Of a stretch of DNA of 64,000 nt, positions 17,400 through 56,994 are shown in pieces. The position numbers and the translations under genes were made by a program. The first letter of the stretch is position 1. Every line of letters begins with the position of its first letter. The stretch is from a virus. Under the pieces are notes generated by a model. That model did no database searches, was not told the DNA's origin, and saw nothing but the letters and a program-made list of their open reading frames with translations. The stretch is from positions 1 to 64,000 of the IMG/VR virus record IMGVR_UViG_3300005274_000001. One strand, written 5' to 3'.

Positions 17400-19250
17400 A
17401 TGAACCTTGTGGATATTATAAATTTCTTTGGAACTACCGGATCACAACTTCCGTTTAACTTGAAAGAGGAAGGAGGCAAGTATTATCTAATAAATAACCC
17501 AAATAATATAGTGAACAACACCCCTCTTTTTGACGGAATTTATTTTGAATTAATTCAAGGCACGCTAGACAATCAAAACGGGTTAACTCAAAATTTGGTT
17601 GTTAAGCTAAGAAACCCAAACAACATACAAATAGCTTCTTCATATGTCGTTAGACTTTACAACGCTCAAAATGGTGCTCTGCTTTTTGAAACTTATGTAC
17701 CTTCTTCCTTTGATGGTTTAGAGGTTTCTTTTTCAACTAATGTAAATGTTCCACTTATTACGATAGAAGCAAACGGGTTAGTCCTTTATACAAGTTACGA
17801 ATATCTAAACGGCTATATTCCCTTAGATCAGAGAATTTACGCTTCTTTTAGAGATCCTAATAACATTGAAGTTTTCAGAGCTTTTTTCGTTAGAAAACTA
17901 AATAACAAAAGATACTTCACTTCAACCTTTAGATCTGTTTATAACAAGTTTTTAAATTCGTCAACAATCTATTTCAGATTTTTAGATGTTTACTTAAACA
18001 ATACAATAATAGGAAACTTCAACTATCAGATAATTACAGAGTTTAAATTTCCACAACAATATAGATTTATTTCAGAACAAGAAGCGTTTTCTATAAGCAC
18101 CTATTCAATAATGCTTTTAGCCTTCTATAAAGATTTTGTTGAAAAATTATCTGGGTTTTTAATAAATGAAATAGACTTCTCGCAGTTAGATAAAGATTTA
18201 AGAAACTTTCCTTACAAAAAATATTTTTATAACAAAAACACTCTGTCCTATGAAAAAGTATCTTCTTATGTAGACATAACAGAGCTTTTGCTTGCAATAC
18301 TGTTAGGAATAAAAGTATATGGAATGCTGGATTCTAGCAAACAAATAATTGATGATTTAGTTAATGAGTTAAATAACTTCTCACCTATTGTTTATTATCC
18401 AGATTCATCAGTCGGCTCGAAGGCTTTAATACCTGACATTATAAATTCTGATGTAGAAGAGCAGTATTCCTTATTTACAAATATTTTATTTGCGCATATA
18501 TTGAATCTTTTAGGAATAGATAATTCGCCACTAATCAGCGAAATAAACAGAGTATTTGTTAATAACAGCCAAAAAACAACAAACAGATCTTTAGGCTCTA
18601 TAAGCTCATTTACTCCTATTGAAGCAGCAGTTATTTTAAAATTTGCGCCGAAATATTTGGATGTAAACAATAGTTATGTTTCTTCACTAATTTCTTCTGC
18701 AACATCTCAGTTATATTCTGTAGAATATGTAAATTCTATATCGCTAAATTCCGATGTGAATTCAGATTCTTATAACCCAATATACGATGAAAATCTATCC
18801 TCTGCTTTGCCTTTTTACGATAAAAGAACATATTTAAACCTAATAATAAACATGCTGCTAGATAACCCGATAAACAATTTCATTTCCTTTTCTTCTGATG
18901 GAGCAATATTAGACAGCTACAAGTATTCAATTTACGAAAGTTTTTATATATTACCTTCGCTAAGAGCAAATTTGACCTACTTCTTTTTAAGCATAGAAAA
19001 TGTATTTGAAGGAAAAGTCGAAGAAAAATCAGAAGTTATACTTATAGATAGTGTTATAAGCCAAGCAGCAAACCATCTAATTGCAGAGCTAACTTTTAAT
19101 AAACCAGTAAAAATCTTGGCAATAATTTCTAACCAAGGAACACCATTAGCTTATGCATCATCAATGTCTGAAAGTGCCCACCACACATTGACATTTTCTA
19201 TATTCTCTCCTTCTTCAAACCATGTTTTAGAAATATATGTTCTTAACTAG
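17400..19250 (+). CDS. Hypothetical Asn/Ser-rich 616-aa protein
   Basis: Long ORF with its own TATAAT-6 nt-ATG leaderless start. Confidence 0.8.
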   Translation: MNLVDIINFFGTTGSQLPFNLKEEGGKYYLINNPNNIVNNTPLFDGIYFELIQGTLDNQNGLTQNLVVKLRNPNNIQIASSYVVRLYNAQNGALLFETYVPSSFDGLEVSFSTNVNVPLITIEANGLVLYTSYEYLNGYIPLDQRIYASFRDPNNIEVFRAFFVRKLNNKRYFTSTFRSVYNKFLNSSTIYFRFLDVYLNNTIIGNFNYQIITEFKFPQQYRFISEQEAFSISTYSIMLLAFYKDFVEKLSGFLINEIDFSQLDKDLRNFPYKKYFYNKNTLSYEKVSSYVDITELLLAILLGIKVYGMLDSSKQIIDDLVNELNNFSPIVYYPDSSVGSKALIPDIINSDVEEQYSLFTNILFAHILNLLGIDNSPLISEINRVFVNNSQKTTNRSLGSISSFTPIEAAVILKFAPKYLDVNNSYVSSLISSATSQLYSVEYVNSISLNSDVNSDSYNPIYDENLSSALPFYDKRTYLNLIINMLLDNPINNFISFSSDGAILDSYKYSIYESFYILPSLRANLTYFFLSIENVFEGKVEEKSEVILIDSVISQAANHLIAELTFNKPVKILAIISNQGTPLAYASSMSESAHHTLTFSIFSPSSNHVLEIYVLN

Positions 19251-19289
19251 CAAACAAATAAGCGAAATGAGTGCTATAATATACTCAAG

Positions 19290-21149
19290 ATGAAATTAGA
19301 TAGGTTTTTCAAGAGCAAGGTAGTGGAAAACAATAAAATTTCATTTAAGGAATTTCTTGAAGAGAAATTTGTAAAAAATCCACAGAAATATTCTAGAAGT
19401 GCACACAAATACCTCTTTGATGCGATTACATACTTTGGGTTTGACGAAGAAAGAAATATTCCCAAAATCTTTGCAAACGAATTGTTTGGAGTTGACGACA
19501 AAATAAGAGAATTTATGACCATTTTGGAAGCAGGTGCAAACGGTCATGATGTAAGAAGAAGGATTATCCTTTTCGTAGGACCAGTAGGAACAGCAAAGAG
19601 CACTTTTGTAAGTATCATCAAAAAGGCGCTAGAAAGGTATTCTAGAACAGAAGATGGGGAAATCTACGCTATAGAATTTTGTCCAATACACGAAAACCCA
19701 CTCAATTTAATTCCAGAAGATGCAAGAGATGACTTTTATAGGGAGTTTGGAGTAAAAATAGATCAAGAGCTATGTCCAGTTTGTAGATACAAATTGGAAG
19801 AACTAAAGTATGAAGATGTCAGCGCTGTACCAGTAGTTAGATTTACTTTTTCTGAGGCTGAAAGGAGAGGAATTGCTACATTTGTTCCTGCAGATTGGAC
19901 TTCACAAGATGTTTCTGTACTTGTTGGTTCTGAAAACTTTAGAACTGTACAAGAATTAGGTGATCCTTCTCATCCTTTAGCTTGGAACTTCAACGGTTCA
20001 TTGTTTGTTGCCAATAGAGGAATTCATGAGTTTATTGAGCTTCATAAAGCAAAACCCGATCTACTTTTCCCTCTAATTACTGTTGCGCAAGAAAGAAAAG
20101 TAAAAGTTGACAGATTTGGTCTAATAGATGTTGATGAAGTGCTAATTTCACATACAAACTACGCAGAATATAACAAATTTGTTGGCAAGAAGGAAAACGA
20201 AGCGTTAAAAGACAGAACAAGAGAAATAAATTGGATTTACAATCTAAAATGGGACGATGAGGAAAAAATTTATAAGAAAATGTTAGGAGAAACTAGCTAC
20301 CACTTGGCTCCTTGGACACTAAAATTTATTGCAGGCATTGCAATAATGTCTAGATTATCACCAGATAGAGATAAAAAGTACGATTTGTTAACTTCATTGA
20401 AACTTTACAACGGTGAGTATGGTGCAATGTACTCTGAATACCATGTAGACGAAATGAAACATCCTGACGATGGTAAGTTCGGCATTTCGCCAAGGATAGC
20501 AGTAGATGCGCTAAGCTTTGCTTCAGTAGGAAACACTTGTGTTACTCCGATCAGAGCTTATGAGAAGTTGGAAGAAATAATTAAATCTGGAAATGTCGAT
20601 ATATCTCATAAAGAGTTTTTGGCACTAAAAGACATGATTTTGACAGAATACAATAAATTTATTAAAGACGCAGTTTTTAGAGCTTTCATTGGTTCTTCTT
20701 TTGCTACCGAAGCACAAAAGTATGTTGATCGTTATATTGAAAACGCTCAGGCGTTTATTAATGGAGAAAAAGTAAAAGATCCATTTACAGGAAATTATGT
20801 AGAACCAGATGAGAAATTCTTGAGGTCAATTGAAGAATTAGTTGGAATTTCTAAGGAAGCTGCAAAAGATTTTAGAATGAAAATTCTTGTTAAAGCAACA
20901 AACCTACTTAGAATGGGTAAAAAGATTACCTATGATATCCATCCTTTATTGAAGGAAGCAATTGAAAACAAGATCTTTGGAGATAGAGCAACATTTATAC
21001 GAGGCTCAATAACTTCAGTAGTTAAAACAGAAGAACAAGAAAAGCATATACAAGAAGCAGTTGAAGAACTTAAAAAGGTTGGTTTTTGTGAGGTTTGCGC
21101 TAGAGAAGCTATAAGCTATGTAGCCTACCTGCTTGATGTAGCAAGATAA
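19290..21149 (+). CDS. prkA: PrkA/YeaG AAA+ protein (annotated family: serine protein kinase)
   Basis: LFGVD, GPVGTAKS Walker A, CPIHENPL, ANRGIHEFIELHK, HTN, EALKDR, GISPR. Confidence 0.95.
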   Translation: MKLDRFFKSKVVENNKISFKEFLEEKFVKNPQKYSRSAHKYLFDAITYFGFDEERNIPKIFANELFGVDDKIREFMTILEAGANGHDVRRRIILFVGPVGTAKSTFVSIIKKALERYSRTEDGEIYAIEFCPIHENPLNLIPEDARDDFYREFGVKIDQELCPVCRYKLEELKYEDVSAVPVVRFTFSEAERRGIATFVPADWTSQDVSVLVGSENFRTVQELGDPSHPLAWNFNGSLFVANRGIHEFIELHKAKPDLLFPLITVAQERKVKVDRFGLIDVDEVLISHTNYAEYNKFVGKKENEALKDRTREINWIYNLKWDDEEKIYKKMLGETSYHLAPWTLKFIAGIAIMSRLSPDRDKKYDLLTSLKLYNGEYGAMYSEYHVDEMKHPDDGKFGISPRIAVDALSFASVGNTCVTPIRAYEKLEEIIKSGNVDISHKEFLALKDMILTEYNKFIKDAVFRAFIGSSFATEAQKYVDRYIENAQAFINGEKVKDPFTGNYVEPDEKFLRSIEELVGISKEAAKDFRMKILVKATNLLRMGKKITYDIHPLLKEAIENKIFGDRATFIRGSITSVVKTEEQEKHIQEAVEELKKVGFCEVCAREAISYVAYLLDVAR

Positions 21150-21155
21150 AAAAAG

Positions 21156-21310
21156 CCGGACACCTACAGAAAAATATCACAAGTAAGCATTCGTAATCAC
21201 TTTTGATATCTTTTCTGTAGAGTGCCCTTCGCTGCTTCTTTTTGAGAAGCAGGAAATACTACCTGCTATCTCCCTAATAATCGGAAGACTTGCAGGATAC
21301 CTGAATAAGT
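21156..21310 (-). ncRNA. Putative omegaRNA scaffold of the IS607 TnpB
   Basis: Long stem ctacagaaaa(21164-21173)/ttttctgtag(21211-21220) extended by atatca/tgatat; second hairpin ctgcttct/agaagcag near 21232-21252; overlaps tnpB 3' end. Boundaries inferred. Confidence 0.55.
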
Positions 21311-22628
21311 TGACTTTTATTGGCCTTGAAAGTTTATCTAACCAATTGTTTAAAGCAAAAAATGTTTCTCTTGCGTTACTACCTAGCGCCTTTATTGCTA
21401 AATTTAGCGCTCCATTTAAGTCTGCATTAAAAGCCTTTTTGAGTCTAAGGTCTATGAAAAGACCTCTTTTGATTCTCTTTCCTTCTAATTTGAGATTTTT
21501 AACTTCTTCTTCAGAAATATTTTTTATTCTTTTGTTCTGCAATATTTCTATATTTCCGCTTGCTGAAGAAACTTTTGAAGTCCAGCTTTCTTCTTCTCTA
21601 ACTACCTCAATGCCATACATTTCACACTTGTATTCTATAATCTTCAAAAGTTTTTCTAAAGGAAAAAATCTAAATGTTTGATTAAATCTTGCCCCCTTTT
21701 TACTTTCTCTTTGATATTCCCCATTTAATGAATTCGGAATTATTACTTTTCCTACTCCCCTTTCAAGACATATTCTTACGATTAGGTTTGCTACTTGATG
21801 CAAGAATCCTTTTATTCTCTTTTCTCTATATCTCCATAATGTTCTTTCAAGAGTTTGCTCCCCTTTGCTTTTTAGTTTTGCGCTAAGTTTGTTTGTCCAT
21901 TGATTAAATGATTTTAGTGGGTTTCCATCAACTATAAAGCTTCTTAAATTTTCATCATTTGAAATGCAAGAAACAAGATTTTTTACTCCTACATCTATAC
22001 TTAGCCACTTGTTTTTGTTAAGTTCTGTTTTCGGTTTTTGAATTTCGTATGTTATTTTAAAAACAGCTTCTATGTCTTTATACCAAGTTATCTTTACGTT
22101 CCGAACATTTATTTCTTGGGGAATTTTTACTTTAACGGCCCCAAAATCAGTTCCAAGTCTGATTACTATTGAGTTTTCTTTTCCTCTTTTCAAATTTCTT
22201 TTATCAACCAACATATTTTGATTTGTAAAAATTGTAAATTTGTGAACTTTTTCTAGTTTTTTAGGTTTTGGAAGAGAAGATTTTTCTCCTCTTTTCCACT
22301 TTTCAAGAACGCTCTTTACTTCTTTGGAAACTTGTTGAACCAAAGCTTTTGCGCTGTCAGATCCTATTTTATTTTTCCAAAGTTCTTTTAGCTTTTCTCT
22401 GTAATCTTTAATTTTTTCATTTTCAAAAGCTAAACTTTCTTTTCCTTTAACAAACTTCTCAAGGAAATAAGCATTTAAAAAGGGTTTTATATCTTTAGTG
22501 TTCCTGTAATATTCCCATAGACAAAGATATATTAAGTTTTTAAATTGTTGAAAAGTCAAACTTGCCTTCTTTAATTTGTTTAAGACACTTCTTTTTGTTA
22601 TTGATATTTCAAGCGTTAGAGTTTGCAT
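21177..22628 (-). CDS. tnpB: TnpB RNA-guided endonuclease, IS607 type (rearranged RuvC, no Zn finger)
   Basis: RuvC-I SIDVGVKN; canonical RuvC-II Glu replaced (KVIIPNS) with alternative Glu in EEESWTSK; RuvC-III NADLNGALN; RIKRGLF. Confidence 0.9.
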   Translation of the reverse strand: MQTLTLEISITKRSVLNKLKKASLTFQQFKNLIYLCLWEYYRNTKDIKPFLNAYFLEKFVKGKESLAFENEKIKDYREKLKELWKNKIGSDSAKALVQQVSKEVKSVLEKWKRGEKSSLPKPKKLEKVHKFTIFTNQNMLVDKRNLKRGKENSIVIRLGTDFGAVKVKIPQEINVRNVKITWYKDIEAVFKITYEIQKPKTELNKNKWLSIDVGVKNLVSCISNDENLRSFIVDGNPLKSFNQWTNKLSAKLKSKGEQTLERTLWRYREKRIKGFLHQVANLIVRICLERGVGKVIIPNSLNGEYQRESKKGARFNQTFRFFPLEKLLKIIEYKCEMYGIEVVREEESWTSKVSSASGNIEILQNKRIKNISEEEVKNLKLEGKRIKRGLFIDLRLKKAFNADLNGALNLAIKALGSNARETFFALNNWLDKLSRPIKVNLFRYPASLPIIREIAGSISCFSKRSSEGHSTEKISKVITNAYL

Positions 22629-23193
22629 CTTCTATTGCTCCTTTTATACAACTTTCAATTTTTTTTGTTTTGTAACTTCTAGTTCCGTAAATTTTTGAAG
22701 TTATATAATGTACAAAGCTGACTAGTTCTTCTACTGCGTCTTTGATTTGCTCATCTGTAGAAAGTTCCTCAGATTTATCTATAACATTTATTTCAACATC
22801 AAATCTTGAAAAAATTTCTTCAAAAAGTTCAAAGGCTATTCTTGAAAGCCTATCTTTTGAATAAATGACTACTCTTTCTATTTCTGAACCAAAAACCATA
22901 TCAATTAACCTTTTAATCCCTTTTCTTTTAAAATTAAAAGAACTTGCAATATCTGTTATTACTTCGTCAATTTGCAATCCCTTTGAAGCACAATACTGCT
23001 TACAGAGCTGTATTTGGTGCTCAAGATAAGATTTTTGCTTTTGCGTAGAAACTCTAGCATAAATAACTGTTTTTCTTGGAAGTTCCTTTCCTTTAAGTGA
23101 GAAAAATTGTTTTACATGGTCTTCTGTAAATCTATATCTTCCTGCAGGCGTTTTTAGTGGAACAATAAGTCCCCTTCTCCGGCATACAACATT
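22609..23193 (-). pseudogene. tnpA: IS607 TnpA serine recombinase lacking start codon and most of its N-terminal HTH
   Basis: Frame is open 216 nt beyond the ORF-track TTG: NVVCRRRGLIVPLKTPAGRYRF...VIYARVSTQKQK..., bounded by TAA (23194-23196) with no in-frame ATG/GTG; the two nearby ATGs are out of frame. Confidence 0.8.
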
Positions 23194-23211
23194 TTAGCAC
23201 AAAATAGAGTC

Positions 23212-23240
23212 TTGCCTTAAAAGGCATTTTGTGTTAAGAT
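23212..23240 (+). promoter_or_regulatory. Promoter of dNMP kinase, back-to-back with an extended -10 facing the IS
   Basis: TTGCCT-17 nt-TAAGAT; on minus strand TGcTAAAAT at about 23190-23198. Confidence 0.7.
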
Positions 23241-23249
23241 GTGTCTAGT

Positions 23250-23828
23250 ATGTACCTACCTAGCCTAGTAGGATTAGTGGGGAGAGCAGGTTCTGGAAAG
23301 GACAGGTTTTATTATTCAGTTTTGGCGCAATACAACTATGTAAGAATTGCCTTTGGCGACCCTGTAAAGGTTCTATCAGTAATTCACTTGTTAAAAAGTT
23401 ACCCTGGAATTTTAGAAAAAGAAGAACAATTGTTAAGAGTATTTCCTTCTTTGTATCTCGAACTGTTTTCCAATCAAAAAACTTCTTTGTCTAGGACTCT
23501 TCAACAATATATAGGAACAGATTTAGCAAGAAGTTTTGATGAAAATTATTGGATAAAAATAGCAGAAGAGTTAATAAAAGAAAAGCTAGAAAAAGGAATT
23601 CGAGTAACTGTTACTGATGTTAGATTTTTAAATGAAGCAGAAAGCATCAAGAAGCTTGGGGGAGTTTTAGTCAAGATAGTTGGCAAAGGTTCATACGATT
23701 TCGATGACTTAGAAGCAAAACATCAATCAGAAAGTGAATTAGAAAAAATAGTTTGCGATTATACAGAAAGTGAATTTGTTTCTTTAATTAAAGAGCAAAG
23801 AATTTATACTCCAGAAGCGGAAGAGTAA
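23250..23828 (+). CDS. Deoxynucleoside monophosphate kinase
   Basis: GLVGRAGSGKD, AFGDPVK, R..LQ..GTD..R, TDVRFLNE, HQSE. Confidence 0.92.
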   Translation: MYLPSLVGLVGRAGSGKDRFYYSVLAQYNYVRIAFGDPVKVLSVIHLLKSYPGILEKEEQLLRVFPSLYLELFSNQKTSLSRTLQQYIGTDLARSFDENYWIKIAEELIKEKLEKGIRVTVTDVRFLNEAESIKKLGGVLVKIVGKGSYDFDDLEAKHQSESELEKIVCDYTESEFVSLIKEQRIYTPEAEE

Positions 23829-23863
23829 CTTTCTTTTCTCCATGGGATTGGTAAGCAAATGCG

Positions 23864-23902
23864 AAATAAAGGACAGGAATTTTCCTGTCCTTTATTTTTT
23901 TT
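23864..23902 (+). terminator. Intrinsic terminator
   Basis: aaataaaggacaggaa/ttcctgtcctttattt hairpin followed by a T run. Confidence 0.85.
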
Positions 23903-23915
23903 GTTTGTTTTTGAC

Positions 23916-23944
23916 TTGACCACAAACGGGAAGTGTGCTATCAT
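23916..23944 (+). promoter_or_regulatory. sigmaA-type promoter of tRNA-Thr
   Basis: TTGACC-17 nt-TATCAT with extended TG. Confidence 0.8.
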
Positions 23945-23960
23945 AGCTTATGAGATGCAT

Positions 23961-24036
23961 GGCCCCGTAGCTCAACAGGAAGAGCACCCGCCTTGTAAGC
24001 GGGGGGTTGTGGGTTCGAATCCCACCGGGGCCTCCA
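23961..24036 (+). tRNA. tRNA-Thr(UGU)
   Basis: Acceptor GGCCCCG/CGGGGCC, D stem GCTC/GAGC, anticodon stem CCCGC/GCGGG with loop CTTGTAA, T arm GTGGG-TTCGAAT-CCCAC, discriminator T, encoded CCA; 76 nt. Confidence 0.97.
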
Positions 24037-24041
24037 GAAAC

Positions 24042-24377
24042 ATGAAAAAGATAAAAATAATAACCTCTTCAGAGCCCAATAAAGATTTTGTTAATATTAA
24101 TCTTCTAAATCGCAATGGACTTTTGAGAAAGAGTGTTACTTACGGAGTTATGTTAAGAGAAACAAATTATGGATTTTTTGGAATTAAAGGAGAAGCGTAC
24201 TTCAAAAACTATGTTAAAGATGTCTTTGTAAACGGAAAAAATAAACTTCTAGAAGAACTAAAAACGAAGGACACAATAAATCTTGTAACCATTGACGGGA
24301 AGGAAAATTTTTACAGCAAGATCGTAAAAGAAGTTTTATCTGATCTCTTAATAGAAGAGGGTTTTGAAATTATTTAA
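24042..24377 (+). CDS. Hypothetical protein starting 5 nt after the tRNA CCA
   Basis: 3' part of ORF-track 23859..24377; start moved to MKKIK. Confidence 0.7.
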   Translation: MKKIKIITSSEPNKDFVNINLLNRNGLLRKSVTYGVMLRETNYGFFGIKGEAYFKNYVKDVFVNGKNKLLEELKTKDTINLVTIDGKENFYSKIVKEVLSDLLIEEGFEII

Positions 24378-26229
24378 GAGCTTCGTTGTCAACAATTTCA
24401 CCAAAAACTCTTTTGGCAAATTTTGCTTCTTCTTCTCTAATAATTTTGTCAAATTTATCAAGTATACTTCTCTTTTTATCCACTTTAAATAAGTCATTTT
24501 CTAAACCTTTTGGAGTACCAATTACTGATATTGTCTGTAAAGGAAGGTTTACCAAAAGGTAAGTAAGTATTGCTACAGTATCGCTCATATCTTTTGATGT
24601 ATCTGGTTTATGGTCAACTTTCTTTTTTTCTCTGTCTTCTATTAAGTTAGCTAATTCCCAAAATAATACTGGATGATAGTAAAGATGTATTCCGCCATTG
24701 TCTAGCCTATCTCCCTTTCCAGAAGAAGGAGGTGCCTCACCAAAAAGTCTTTCTCTTAGTAGGGCGTAATGCTCATAGTTTACATATTTGTTGTAAGTAA
24801 CTTTCATATGAGGATATCTTCTTTTTAGCCATTGCGCTGTTGAAGCTGAGTTGTATATATCAAAAAATGCGTGTGTGATGTTAAATTTTCTTTCTTCTAT
24901 TAGCTTTTCTATAAGATTGTGTACAGCGTTTATTTGAACCTCTTCTTCATCAAACATGTATCCAGTAAACCTAAACACAAAATCGATGACTGGTCTAGGA
25001 ATTAATTTTCCTTCCTTTGAATAATAGAATTCTCTATGTCCAAGAGCTATTGCGTAAGCATCTCCTTCTGTAGAAACTCTTCCCAAACCAGGATCAGCTA
25101 CAAGGACGTATTCAACACCATCCTTTCCGTAAAACCAATCCTTAAATTCTAAATTGTAAGGATTTATTTTTTCATATGAACCATCTTCTTTTAAGGCGAA
25201 AGCTTCAAGTTTAGGGTTATTGTAAAAATCTTCTGGGGGCAACGGAAACTTTAATGGATGAAGTTCCGAAGATTTCATAGCATTTTTTAGTCTTTCCAAA
25301 TCTGTAAACCAAGCGTCTATTGGTTGTTCTGGAGGATTACAAGCATAAATTGTTTCTGCTTCTACAGGATTTTTTTCAAACTCAGAAGCAAAGGTTTCTC
25401 TTGTTATCATTGGATTTGGATTAAATTCCCAAGTAGGATATTTGGCTACAAAAGAATGAGGAAGCCCTAAATGTTCTTTATATAGTTTTTGTATCATTCC
25501 ATTTGATTCGCTGTAACGCATGTATGAAATAGCGAAAATTTTTTCTTTTCCATTAAATCTTGACCTAGAAGAAGACCTTAACATTGTCCACATTTTTTCT
25601 GGATTTCTAAAAGACTTAGCATCTATTTCGTCTGCTACTGCCACAAGAATGTTTTTTCCTTCTAGAGAATCGCTTTCAGAGTGGCCGCTAACTAGATGAA
25701 TGTTTTTAGGAAAGATAATGTGTTTTTCTTTTATATCTGTATCTGGATTAAAGCCAAACTGTCTAAAGGCTTTTGGACCAGCGTTTCTTATGTAATTTTT
25801 TAGTGGATCAAAAAATACACTCGCAGCCTGATCAGCTGATGCGGCAACATTGAGAAAAGTAATAATTTCTGAACTTGGTATTCCAAAATATTTGTGTGGA
25901 GAATACATACAAAGTAGACGATAGACAAGCCTCATAAATATTATTCTTGTAATAAAATCCTTTCCTCCACCTTTTCCAACCCAAAGAATTATATAGTTAA
26001 TACCATTTTCAAAATCATCTGCTATTTCTAAGACCTTCTTTTGTGGCTCAGAAAGACCATAAAGATTTATTCCCAAATAGTCATTACTAGTTACGAAAGT
26101 AATAATATCTACTGGTTCTACTTCATAAATATCTTTCGGATTTAACTCTGCTTTAGCCTCATAGGTTTTTTTCTCTATGAGGGAATTTATATCTCTAATT
26201 ATTGAAAAGCTTTCATTCTTCTTCGGCAT
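24370..26229 (-). CDS. terL: Terminase large subunit
   Basis: Walker A GKGGGKD, LEGKN, Walker B VAVADEID, PTWEFNP, nuclease ADPG...D...KVDH...KDMSD. Confidence 0.9.
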   Translation of the reverse strand: MPKKNESFSIIRDINSLIEKKTYEAKAELNPKDIYEVEPVDIITFVTSNDYLGINLYGLSEPQKKVLEIADDFENGINYIILWVGKGGGKDFITRIIFMRLVYRLLCMYSPHKYFGIPSSEIITFLNVAASADQAASVFFDPLKNYIRNAGPKAFRQFGFNPDTDIKEKHIIFPKNIHLVSGHSESDSLEGKNILVAVADEIDAKSFRNPEKMWTMLRSSSRSRFNGKEKIFAISYMRYSESNGMIQKLYKEHLGLPHSFVAKYPTWEFNPNPMITRETFASEFEKNPVEAETIYACNPPEQPIDAWFTDLERLKNAMKSSELHPLKFPLPPEDFYNNPKLEAFALKEDGSYEKINPYNLEFKDWFYGKDGVEYVLVADPGLGRVSTEGDAYAIALGHREFYYSKEGKLIPRPVIDFVFRFTGYMFDEEEVQINAVHNLIEKLIEERKFNITHAFFDIYNSASTAQWLKRRYPHMKVTYNKYVNYEHYALLRERLFGEAPPSSGKGDRLDNGGIHLYYHPVLFWELANLIEDREKKKVDHKPDTSKDMSDTVAILTYLLVNLPLQTISVIGTPKGLENDLFKVDKKRSILDKFDKIIREEEAKFAKRVFGEIVDNEALK

Positions 26230-56745: not shown

Positions 56746-56782
56746 ATAAGCATGAAGCGCAAGCGTTTTAACTTGTGTTGTG

Positions 56783-56994
56783 CAAGAAGTCCTCATCTTC
56801 TAAAGATGGAGATGAATTGCACTTAACGAAAATTATCATTTTGCTATACAATATACCTGTATCGCAACGATAATCAAGTTGCGATACAACTATCGAGTAG
56901 GGCTGGAACGGTCCGAATTTACGCCTGTGGAGATCGCTAGTAAGCGGTCGATGAAGCAGGAAGCTACCACTTCTATAAGTGAGTAGCAGTTCAC
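56783..56994 (+). mobile_element. Non-autonomous IS200/IS605 mini-element (LE + RE only, 212 bp)
   Basis: LE caagaagtcctcatcttctaaagatggagatgaattg; RE gaagctaccacttctataagtgagtagcagttcac ending TCAC; both hairpins share a cttcta-aag loop; no tnpA/tnpB. Confidence 0.85.

Follow-up and report, generated by a model that had tools for sequence, protein, structure and literature searches.

A 5'-truncated IS607-family element with intact tnpB and omegaRNA in a phiYS40-like Thermus phage: probably a decaying copy, plausibly capable of RNA-guided homing

The 64-kb window considered here comprises the first 64,000 bases of a virus record (IMG/VR record IMGVR_UViG_3300005274_000001) that is 157,225 bp long, carries direct terminal repeats, and represents a phiYS40/TMA-like Thermus phage assembled from a compost metagenome; the 157-kb genome of this phage is referred to as G000. 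Its minus strand carries a 5'-truncated insertion sequence (IS) of the IS607 family at 21158 to ~23178. This element is probably, at a rough 60% by our own estimate, an ordinary decaying copy of an IS from phiYS40-like Thermus phages that has kept an intact tnpB and an intact omegaRNA; selfish RNA-guided homing by it is plausible because its flank-derived guide, together with the motif CCTCC, matches the empty site of an IS-free sibling phage. Nothing points to recruitment for the phage's own benefit, and the region should be annotated as a truncated IS607 element rather than as a phage gene cassette.

The extent of the truncation is evident from comparison with full-length copies. Five of these (contigs L004, L007, L008, L019, and L021) are 97.4-98.1% identical to the window element at the nucleotide level over 2019 bp, the homology running from window position 23176 to the intact right end at 21158. 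Positions 157-2175 of L004 align gap-free with window 23176-21158 (97.9% identity), and its positions 1-156, which hold the left end, a TTGACA-17-TATCAT promoter, and the first 32 tnpA codons, have no counterpart in the window. Those 32 codons encode most of the helix-turn-helix. What is left of tnpA (22609-23178, minus strand) is an open frame with no start, in which a serine-recombinase catalytic domain persists and the MerR-type helix-turn-helix is mostly gone: the frame (22609-23193) opens directly after a stop codon, holds no ATG, GTG, or TTG 5' of the catalytic serine, and encodes a Pfam Resolvase domain with the catalytic motif YARVST. It covers only positions 19-187 of the NCBIfam transpos_IS607 profile and lacks residues 1-32 of the 220-residue TnpA of a full-length sibling copy (P0121), a protein that scores 180 bits on the same profile (cut-off 110) and matches both MerR and Resolvase in Pfam. 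The tnpA stop and tnpB start overlap by 20 nt on the same strand in the window and in all full copies. No left end was found at this site or anywhere in the 157-kb genome, nor does that genome hold a second tnpB or a second omegaRNA; because it offers neither another TnpA nor a left end, the window copy, judged from its sequence, can no longer transpose. An earlier reading of this DNA made without database searches (the sequence-only reading) had described a YARVS domain with no start and most of its helix-turn-helix lost, the absence of a left-end region, and an immobilized IS607-type element in which TnpB is intact and a 3' omegaRNA is present, and all three descriptions held against the frame, the profile, the whole genome, and the sibling copies.

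The empty-site comparison that the sequence-only reading had called for is provided by the IS-free IMG/VR contig L059, whose identity to the window is 99.2% on the left side of the site and 99.6% on the right. The empty site, L059:2883-2934, amounts to 52 nt where the window has the element. On the minus strand it reads CCCGCCTCC|GGCTTTTTTTTATCTTGCTAC, and, followed further along the IS strand, ...GTATGCCGGAGAAAAGGATCGTCC...GCGGGTTCGAATCCCGCCTCC|GGCTTTTTTTTATCTTGCTAC..., from which it follows that the IS inserted after CCTCC. Junctions have the form ...CTCC|TTAGAAC...GGTGTCC|flank, with CC at both ends, a single CC in the G000 and L059 empty sites, and no long target duplication, a pattern consistent with the crossover at a fixed dinucleotide known for IS607 elements, in which the omegaRNA also runs past the right end (PMC10711439). 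The right ends of all copies and family members read (G/A)(G/A)TGTCC, and beyond them the flanks diverge (at least six different flanks). Directly 5' of the left end stands CCTCC, or its variants GCTCC and CCTTC, at 12 of the 13 listed loci from phages and Aquificota, a set to which single Persephonella assemblies contribute several copies, all differing in their flanks; the exception is the phage site L008, with ACTCC. As IS607 TnpBs are RNA-guided nucleases whose target-adjacent motif (TAM) adjoins the left end (PMC11061315), the 13 left-end flanks and the L059 empty site lead to 5'-CCTCC as the predicted TAM of this TnpB family. Within the IS family, CCTCC is the pyrimidine strand of a Shine-Dalgarno-like sequence.

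To judge by its junction (23173-23181), the truncation is a later microhomology deletion at AAGG. Phage ...CCGGAG is joined there to IS AAGGGGAC..., the breakpoint GAG|AAGGGG abutting native phage DNA on IS position 157, and the two parental sequences are ...CCGGAGAAAAGGATCG..., from the L059 empty site, and ...ATCAAAAGGGGAC..., from the full IS. Approximately 216 bp were lost, of which ~166 nt belonged to the IS and ~50 nt to the phage. The deleted phage DNA includes a GC hairpin between A- and T-runs that resembles a prkA terminator; L059 has this hairpin as GCGGGATTCGAACCCGC followed by a T-run, and the window lacks it, the hairpin having been deleted along with the IS left end. The truncation had earlier been placed at CCGG, but CCGG is native on both sides and marks no recombination scar. 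A TnpA-mediated deletion marked by the two CCGG strings was also considered and rejected, in that a CC core is missing at the IS breakpoint and the CCGGAG belongs to the native sequence of the phage. Separately, the 52 nt lost from the window hold GCGGGTTCGAATCCCGCCTCC (minus strand), a sequence reminiscent of the T-arm and 3' acceptor strand of a tRNA, with an A-run on one side and a T-run on the other; this region is probably a bidirectional terminator, and the tRNA-like piece is absent from TMA and phiYS40.

It is exceedingly improbable that tnpA is truly intact and only looks truncated because a repeated element was wrongly joined in assembly, a case the sequence-only reading had itself raised. 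The community does hold the IS in more than one copy, and other public runs contain it at full length. Nevertheless, the source run yielded an independent 54-kb contig that covers all of 20700-23700 (3 kb) with 0 differences at a depth of 46, four further assemblies carry the truncation and agree at the contig level save for single-base homopolymer indels, and the empty site and the full IS account for the junction base by base. The four assemblies appear to represent one phage population and hence are not independent evolutionary observations; the public runs holding the complete stretch are compost metagenomes from 2011-2012.

Full-length copies had been expected in host genomes; instead, copies of ~98% identity sit in sibling phages. 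The closest TnpB protein (96% identity) is encoded on a 2,202-bp contig, L004, after a 220-residue TnpA with a MerR helix-turn-helix and a Resolvase domain, and further full-length copies were found via exact-protein look-ups; a 30-mer taken from the missing 5' part of tnpA had no exact match in the viral, genome, and metagenome contig collections. The flanks of the sibling copies map elsewhere in G000 at 71-96% identity, at ~72130 (L021, L022), 92150-93443 (L007, L017, L018), 93027 (both flanks of L019 and L020, the insertion point coinciding exactly with the start of a tRNA-Arg gene), 118334 (L023), 124284 (L004, L008, L009), and ~145776 (L024:2830-4470). The last of these copies keeps its left end, in which the subterminal repeat TCATTTATRATGRTAGTRTATC is present twice, and has lost tnpA independently, by an internal deletion that joins codon 12 to the last codons; a frameshift near residue 420 of its tnpB leads to a product of 425 residues. 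The mapped flanks indicate that the IS is resident in phiYS40-like phages at no fewer than seven sites, the window's included, and that tnpA has been lost at least twice.

Several further observations concern these sibling copies. The copy at the 5' end of the tRNA-Arg(tct) gene (L019:1151-1227) lies where the tRNA acceptor GGAGG gives CCTCC on the opposite strand. Full-length IS contigs of ~98% identity come from runs X4 (biogas fermenter), X8 (hot spring), and X12 (food metagenome); X4 and X8 hold pieces of related phages, and the sequence of the X4 phage departs from that of the window directly upstream of 23217. Other runs that share few or partial words with the stretch, among them mosquito and hypersaline-lake metagenomes, further food metagenomes, and two runs labelled as compost metatranscriptomes, were left aside and do not count as evidence of habitat or expression. 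At the G000 empty sites ~93017-93027, 118325-118340, and 72120-72140, differences from the sibling flanks fall mainly in the TAM or the first 4 target nt (e.g., ACCCC for CCTCC and CAAC for TAGT), the following 30-40 nt being identical, which might reflect escape from TnpB cutting or junction-proximal noise. Identical IS copies with diverged flanks were sought as a homing signature and set aside, as L019/L020, L021/L022, and L007/L017 are the same phages and are uninformative either way. Finally, an IS200-type Y1 transposase gene adjoins the IS607 copy in a sibling phage (L007/L017/L018:2260-2772), and window 56767-56854 is 82% identical to an 88-bp piece beside that gene.

The gene tnpB (21177-22628, minus strand) has its own Shine-Dalgarno sequence, AAGGAG, 11 nt 5' of the ATG and encodes a protein of 483 residues, an RNA-guided nuclease by homology on the basis of Pfam (OrfB_IS605 and Cas12f1-like_TNB), NCBIfam (guided_TnpB, 102.5 against a cut-off of 100), its AlphaFold2 fold, and residue conservation. 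D212, E347, and D403 are invariant across 30 homologues. In a Cas12f alignment, P298/N299 stand at the canonical RuvC-II glutamate position, where the family has S/P and then D/K/N and no conserved acidic residue. TnpB is accordingly a predicted nuclease with a putative D212/alternative E347/D403 triad, much as the sequence-only reading had it. In the stretch E347-SWTSKV-S354-S-A-S357, the glutamate is followed by six residues and then by S354-x-x-S357, where other TnpBs have CxxC; none of the five cysteines (36, 221, 287, 335, and 460) forms a CxxC pair, which bears out the claim that the protein is zinc-finger-less. The RuvC-I motif is D212-V-G, and the family has L, I, or V at the middle position, never P. 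In the AlphaFold2 model, the mean predicted local distance difference test score is 84.3 and the final 27 residues are disordered. The best solved matches by Foldseek are Cas12f, ISDra2 TnpB, and ISFba1 TnpB (E 1e-13 to 1e-8); Fanzor2 ranks 26th among the solved folds (template modeling score 0.47) and is absent at E <= 1 from a profile search of PDB sequences. The proposed kinship with Fanzor2 stands as regards the alternative glutamate at the Fanzor-type position, but membership among the pro-Fanzors fails on the DPG motif and the zinc finger. Beyond the phage copies, the nearest named homologues are from Aquificota, namely Aquifex aeolicus (75%) and then Desulfurobacterium, Sulfurihydrogenibium, and Persephonella, and the weakest found are cyanobacterial; a TnpB peptide-pattern scan of IMG/VR viral contigs returned no relative. 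The closest cellular homologue (75% amino acid identity) is a tnpB-only element on an Aquifex aeolicus-like contig (L005:3001-4465), located between a TauE-family gene and a glycine-cleavage T-protein gene, that keeps its left end, a CCTCC flank, and the omegaRNA.

The omegaRNA scaffold, or at least this part of it, occupies 21158-21302 on the minus strand, forms three helices, overlaps the last 42 tnpB codons, and ends at the right end, ...GGTGTCC. The minimum free energy of these 145 nt is -61.4 kcal/mol, compared with -31.2 +/- 3.3 for shuffles (z -9.1). A covariance model built from three sequences recovered the same structure at the tnpB 3' end in 22 of the 22 sources searched. In the covariance alignment, 92.8% of cells are paired against 41-48% with partners slid, a fraction inflated by the fitting of the alignment to the structure; both-side changes, which inside the coding region are not inflated in this way, occur in 35 of 51 pairs, and none of 500 shuffles matches the observed score. 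The covariance-model alignment was adopted because a plain MAFFT/RNAalifold consensus gave only helix 1 and the closing helix owing to indel misalignment. In the closing helix, GGGCAC pairs with GTGTCC, the last bases of the element, and the guide then starts. Two changes in the terminal helix are specific to the window (at 21225, where A-U became G-U, and at 21165, where a mismatch became U-A), and both keep or improve pairing. The z-score and the covariation together confirm the 3' RNA hairpins that had been seen in the sequence alone; Rfam has no family for them at the gathering threshold or at E <= 10, and RAGATH-18 was not matched.

The predicted guide, GGCTTTTTTTATCTTGCTAC (21138-21157, minus strand), is flanking phage DNA 3' of the right end, its length of ~20 nt being assumed from other TnpBs. 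It is antisense to the prkA stop codon and last three codons, as had been proposed, and the divergence of the flanks at this point in all copies supports its assignment. The combination of CCTCC and the guide matches the L059 empty site and, within the window, nothing but the self locus, which differs from the target only at the TAM position (TGTCC vs. CCTCC). The phages phiYS40 and TMA were rejected as guide targets, as they lack CCTCC and are mismatched at guide positions 1, 3, and 4.

The course of events can be set out as follows. The IS, in minus-strand orientation, entered directly behind prkA after 5'-CCTCC, with CC as the crossover dinucleotide, and the later AAGG deletion removed the left end, promoter, 32 tnpA codons, and ~50 bp of phage DNA including the prkA terminator while leaving tnpB, its ribosome-binding site, and the omegaRNA scaffold untouched. 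If transcribed, TnpB-omegaRNA would recognize 5'-CCTCC plus GGCTTTTTTTATCTTGCTAC, that is, the empty site of IS-free siblings, and would cut that site when both phages infect the same cell; the break, repaired by recombination with the IS-bearing genome as template, would leave the cut sibling with a copy of the truncated element. The outcome would be selfish RNA-guided homing, akin to that of a free-standing homing endonuclease gene. The insertion and deletion steps rest on direct comparison of the parental and derived sequences, whereas the transcription, cleavage, and homing steps are inferred. A homing role for TnpB is reported as established in bacteria (bioRxiv 10.1101/2023.11.20.567912).

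A number of considerations weigh against this interpretation. The native left-end promoter is deleted from the window copy, and a sigma-70 promoter scan yielded 8 sites against 7.8 expected, none of them upstream of tnpB. Terminator-less prkA transcripts may run antisense through the omegaRNA and tnpB. The A/T run in the guide is 7 long in the window and 8 in L059, which, if real, would create a bulge in the seed; because the run length varies from 6 to 8 between assemblies, the difference is probably a sequencing error. The TAM, guide length, and cleavage are themselves all inferred, and the frameshifted tnpB of L024, another tnpA-less copy, indicates that such copies can simply decay. It is on balance unlikely that the truncated element still works at present as an RNA-guided homing drive between co-infecting Thermus phages, converting IS-free siblings at high temperature.

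The same considerations lend themselves to another explanation, possible though doubtful, in which the copy is an inert relic: silent or antisense-silenced, inactive, intact only through the recency of the deletion, and bound to decay. In its favor are the missing left-end promoter with no promoter-like site upstream of tnpB, the antisense read-through made likely by deletion of the prkA terminator, the frameshift in the tnpA-less L024, and the confinement of the truncated locus to apparently one phage population, as well as the 18 substitutions in tnpB, whose split into 11 nonsynonymous and 7 synonymous is statistically in keeping with neutrality. Conversely, tnpB has a strong Shine-Dalgarno sequence of its own, the invariant catalytic residues are all kept, the two lineage-specific changes in the terminal helix maintain or improve pairing, and read-through from the leftward terminase operon or transcription from a -10-like string is possible.

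That string, an extended -10-like TGCTAAAAT-N5-ATG (N5 = GTTGT; 23183-23199, minus strand), was taken by the sequence-only reading for a phage-style promoter facing tnpB. The string exists, but it was not acquired: it is native intergenic DNA, identical in the IS-free L059 and partly conserved in TMA, and such strings occur at or below chance frequency. The genome holds 48 occurrences of TGNTANAAT against ~73 expected from base composition; eight have a nearby ATG, and only three of those eight precede an open reading frame of at least 60 residues. The ATG of the TGCTAAAAT-GTTGT-ATG string is out of frame with tnpA, and the sigma-70 scan did not detect the string. Nothing singles it out, though it may have some role given that phiYS40 transcripts are mostly leaderless (as cited in bioRxiv 10.64898/2026.04.20.719267).

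Selection on the locus can be gauged only within narrow limits. The IS copies fall into three lineages, and the window branch comprises 23 substitutions (~1.2% divergence): 18 in tnpB, 4 in the tnpA remnant (1 nonsynonymous, 3 synonymous), and 1 in the terminal helix. The nonsynonymous to synonymous counts in tnpB of the two lineages with intact tnpA are 8:5 and 5:4. These substitutions are too few to separate constraint from neutrality on the window branch, and, with so few changes, an open tnpB and an open tnpA remnant are to be expected without selection. The truncated locus was found only in contigs 99.98-100% identical to one another, apparently one phage population, and retention under selection across diverged genomes, by which a domesticated TnpB would be recognized, was not observed. 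The intactness of tnpB, offered earlier as a sign of domestication, consequently loses its force, its 11:7 ratio resembling that of the full-length lineages on a branch of only ~1.2% divergence.

These data also bear on the more ambitious proposal that a phage promoter drives TnpB-omegaRNA as a domesticated weapon, kept by selection to destroy IS-free competitor phages, which is highly unlikely. It draws support from the TAM and protospacer match in a 99.2-99.6% identical IS-free sibling, from a phage homing endonuclease reported to help competition between co-infecting phages (PMC11620839), and from the recruitment of a TnpB-derived system of other Thermus phages as Cas12r (bioRxiv 10.64898/2026.04.20.719267). 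Nevertheless, evolutionary depth is missing, the ratio of nonsynonymous to synonymous change is not below that of mobile copies, the putative promoter was already present in IS-free DNA at chance frequency, the guide is a mere insertion flank as for any TnpB element, and phiYS40 and TMA, having no CCTCC at the site, are not targets. The suggestion that the element could cut IS-free competitors survives insofar as L059 carries CCTCC and the guide target, but cutting an empty site amounts to ordinary selfish homing rather than domestication. An ordinary decaying copy, with homing plausible, is thus the preferred account.

The genes on either side are those expected of the phage group. A prkA-like serine kinase gene lies to the left (19290-21149, plus strand) and a dNMP kinase gene to the right (23241-23828, plus strand), both assigned from Pfam and from the annotation of TMA and phiYS40, Thermus phages to which window 19000-25000 is 86.6-86.8% identical. 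In TMA and phiYS40, the dNMP kinase gene directly follows the serine kinase gene with a gap of 97-137 nt and no insertion. Two plus-strand terminator-like hairpins (21373-21389 and 21448-21465) lie within the tnpB 3' region of the window, where terminator-like sites number 3 against 1.3 +/- 1.1 expected; these hairpins could halt prkA read-through after loss of the prkA terminator.

Transposase-less TnpB elements are widespread, and homing is the favored explanation for their persistence; to our knowledge, natural near-identical genome pairs with and without a TnpB element are seldom in hand. The present system offers such a pair, IS-plus and IS-minus phages (99.2-99.6% identical) with an exact TAM and target, along with full-length copies at approximately five other sites and the cultured relatives phiYS40 and TMA, whose Thermus thermophilus host strains are genetically tractable; both RNA-guided homing and its influence on competition between phages are therefore directly testable. 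Were the homing drive real, the IS-bearing phage, or at least the locus, would gain measurably when phages co-infect. It would also be the first instance in nature of one phage targeting another by means of a TnpB that needs no CRISPR array, and the TnpB clade concerned would be one restricted to thermophiles, with an alternative glutamate, a pyrimidine TAM, and no zinc finger. The protein is also a prospective heat-stable compact editor, and only prospective, in view of its thermophile clade, lack of a zinc finger, predicted CCTCC TAM, and clearly delimited scaffold. What is new here is the description of the CCTCC flank motif and omegaRNA of this IS family, the type of system itself being already known.

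Among known systems, the IS607 elements ISXfa1 and ISFba1 are the nearest in organization. They share the order of tnpA and then tnpB with overlapping stop and start, a full-length TnpA with a MerR-type helix-turn-helix and resolvase domain that passes the transpos_IS607 equivalog, a fixed crossover dinucleotide at both ends, an omegaRNA that reads into the flank, and a TAM that adjoins the left end. The present family differs in its predicted pyrimidine-rich TAM, 5'-CCTCC, where assayed IS607 TnpBs use AGGAG, GAGGG, or GGG; in an omegaRNA that lies almost wholly within the tnpB coding region and is not RAGATH-18; and in a longer TnpB (483 residues) with an alternative glutamate and no zinc finger. 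The window copy additionally lacks the left end of a mobile copy and a functional tnpA.

In the Fanzor lineage, the alternative glutamate lies six residues before the first CxxC (PMC10711439; PMC11832414). TnpB here has its alternative glutamate exactly six residues before the first CxxC position, with a canonical site that is neither acidic nor conserved, and shares with pro-Fanzor and Fanzor2 the association with an IS607 TnpA. Unlike those proteins, it has a RuvC-I motif of D-V/L/I-G rather than DPG, SxxS/T and no cysteines in place of the zinc finger, and hosts among Aquificota and Thermus phages rather than cyanobacteria or eukaryotes. The tnpB-only IS1341-type elements, to which many Aquificota family members and the phage copy L024 belong, likewise retain tnpB and omegaRNA without tnpA and take their guide from the right-end flank; however, they keep both ends and the left-end promoter and can be mobilized by TnpA in trans, whereas the window copy has no left end.

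Cas12r of the Lalka Thermus phages (bioRxiv 10.64898/2026.04.20.719267) is likewise a TnpB-lineage nuclease in a Thermus phage and belongs to a thermophile-restricted clade, but it uses a CRISPR array, which the window locus lacks, and is an abundant phage transcript; no Thermus phage was among the tblastn matches to the window TnpB. The behavior predicted for the window element is that of the free-standing homing endonucleases of phages, such as the T4 seg and mob enzymes and PhiPA3 gp210, which cut an allele devoid of their gene and rely on repair to copy the gene into it; the difference is that the target would be recognized here through an RNA guide specified by the flank, not through a specificity inherent in the protein.

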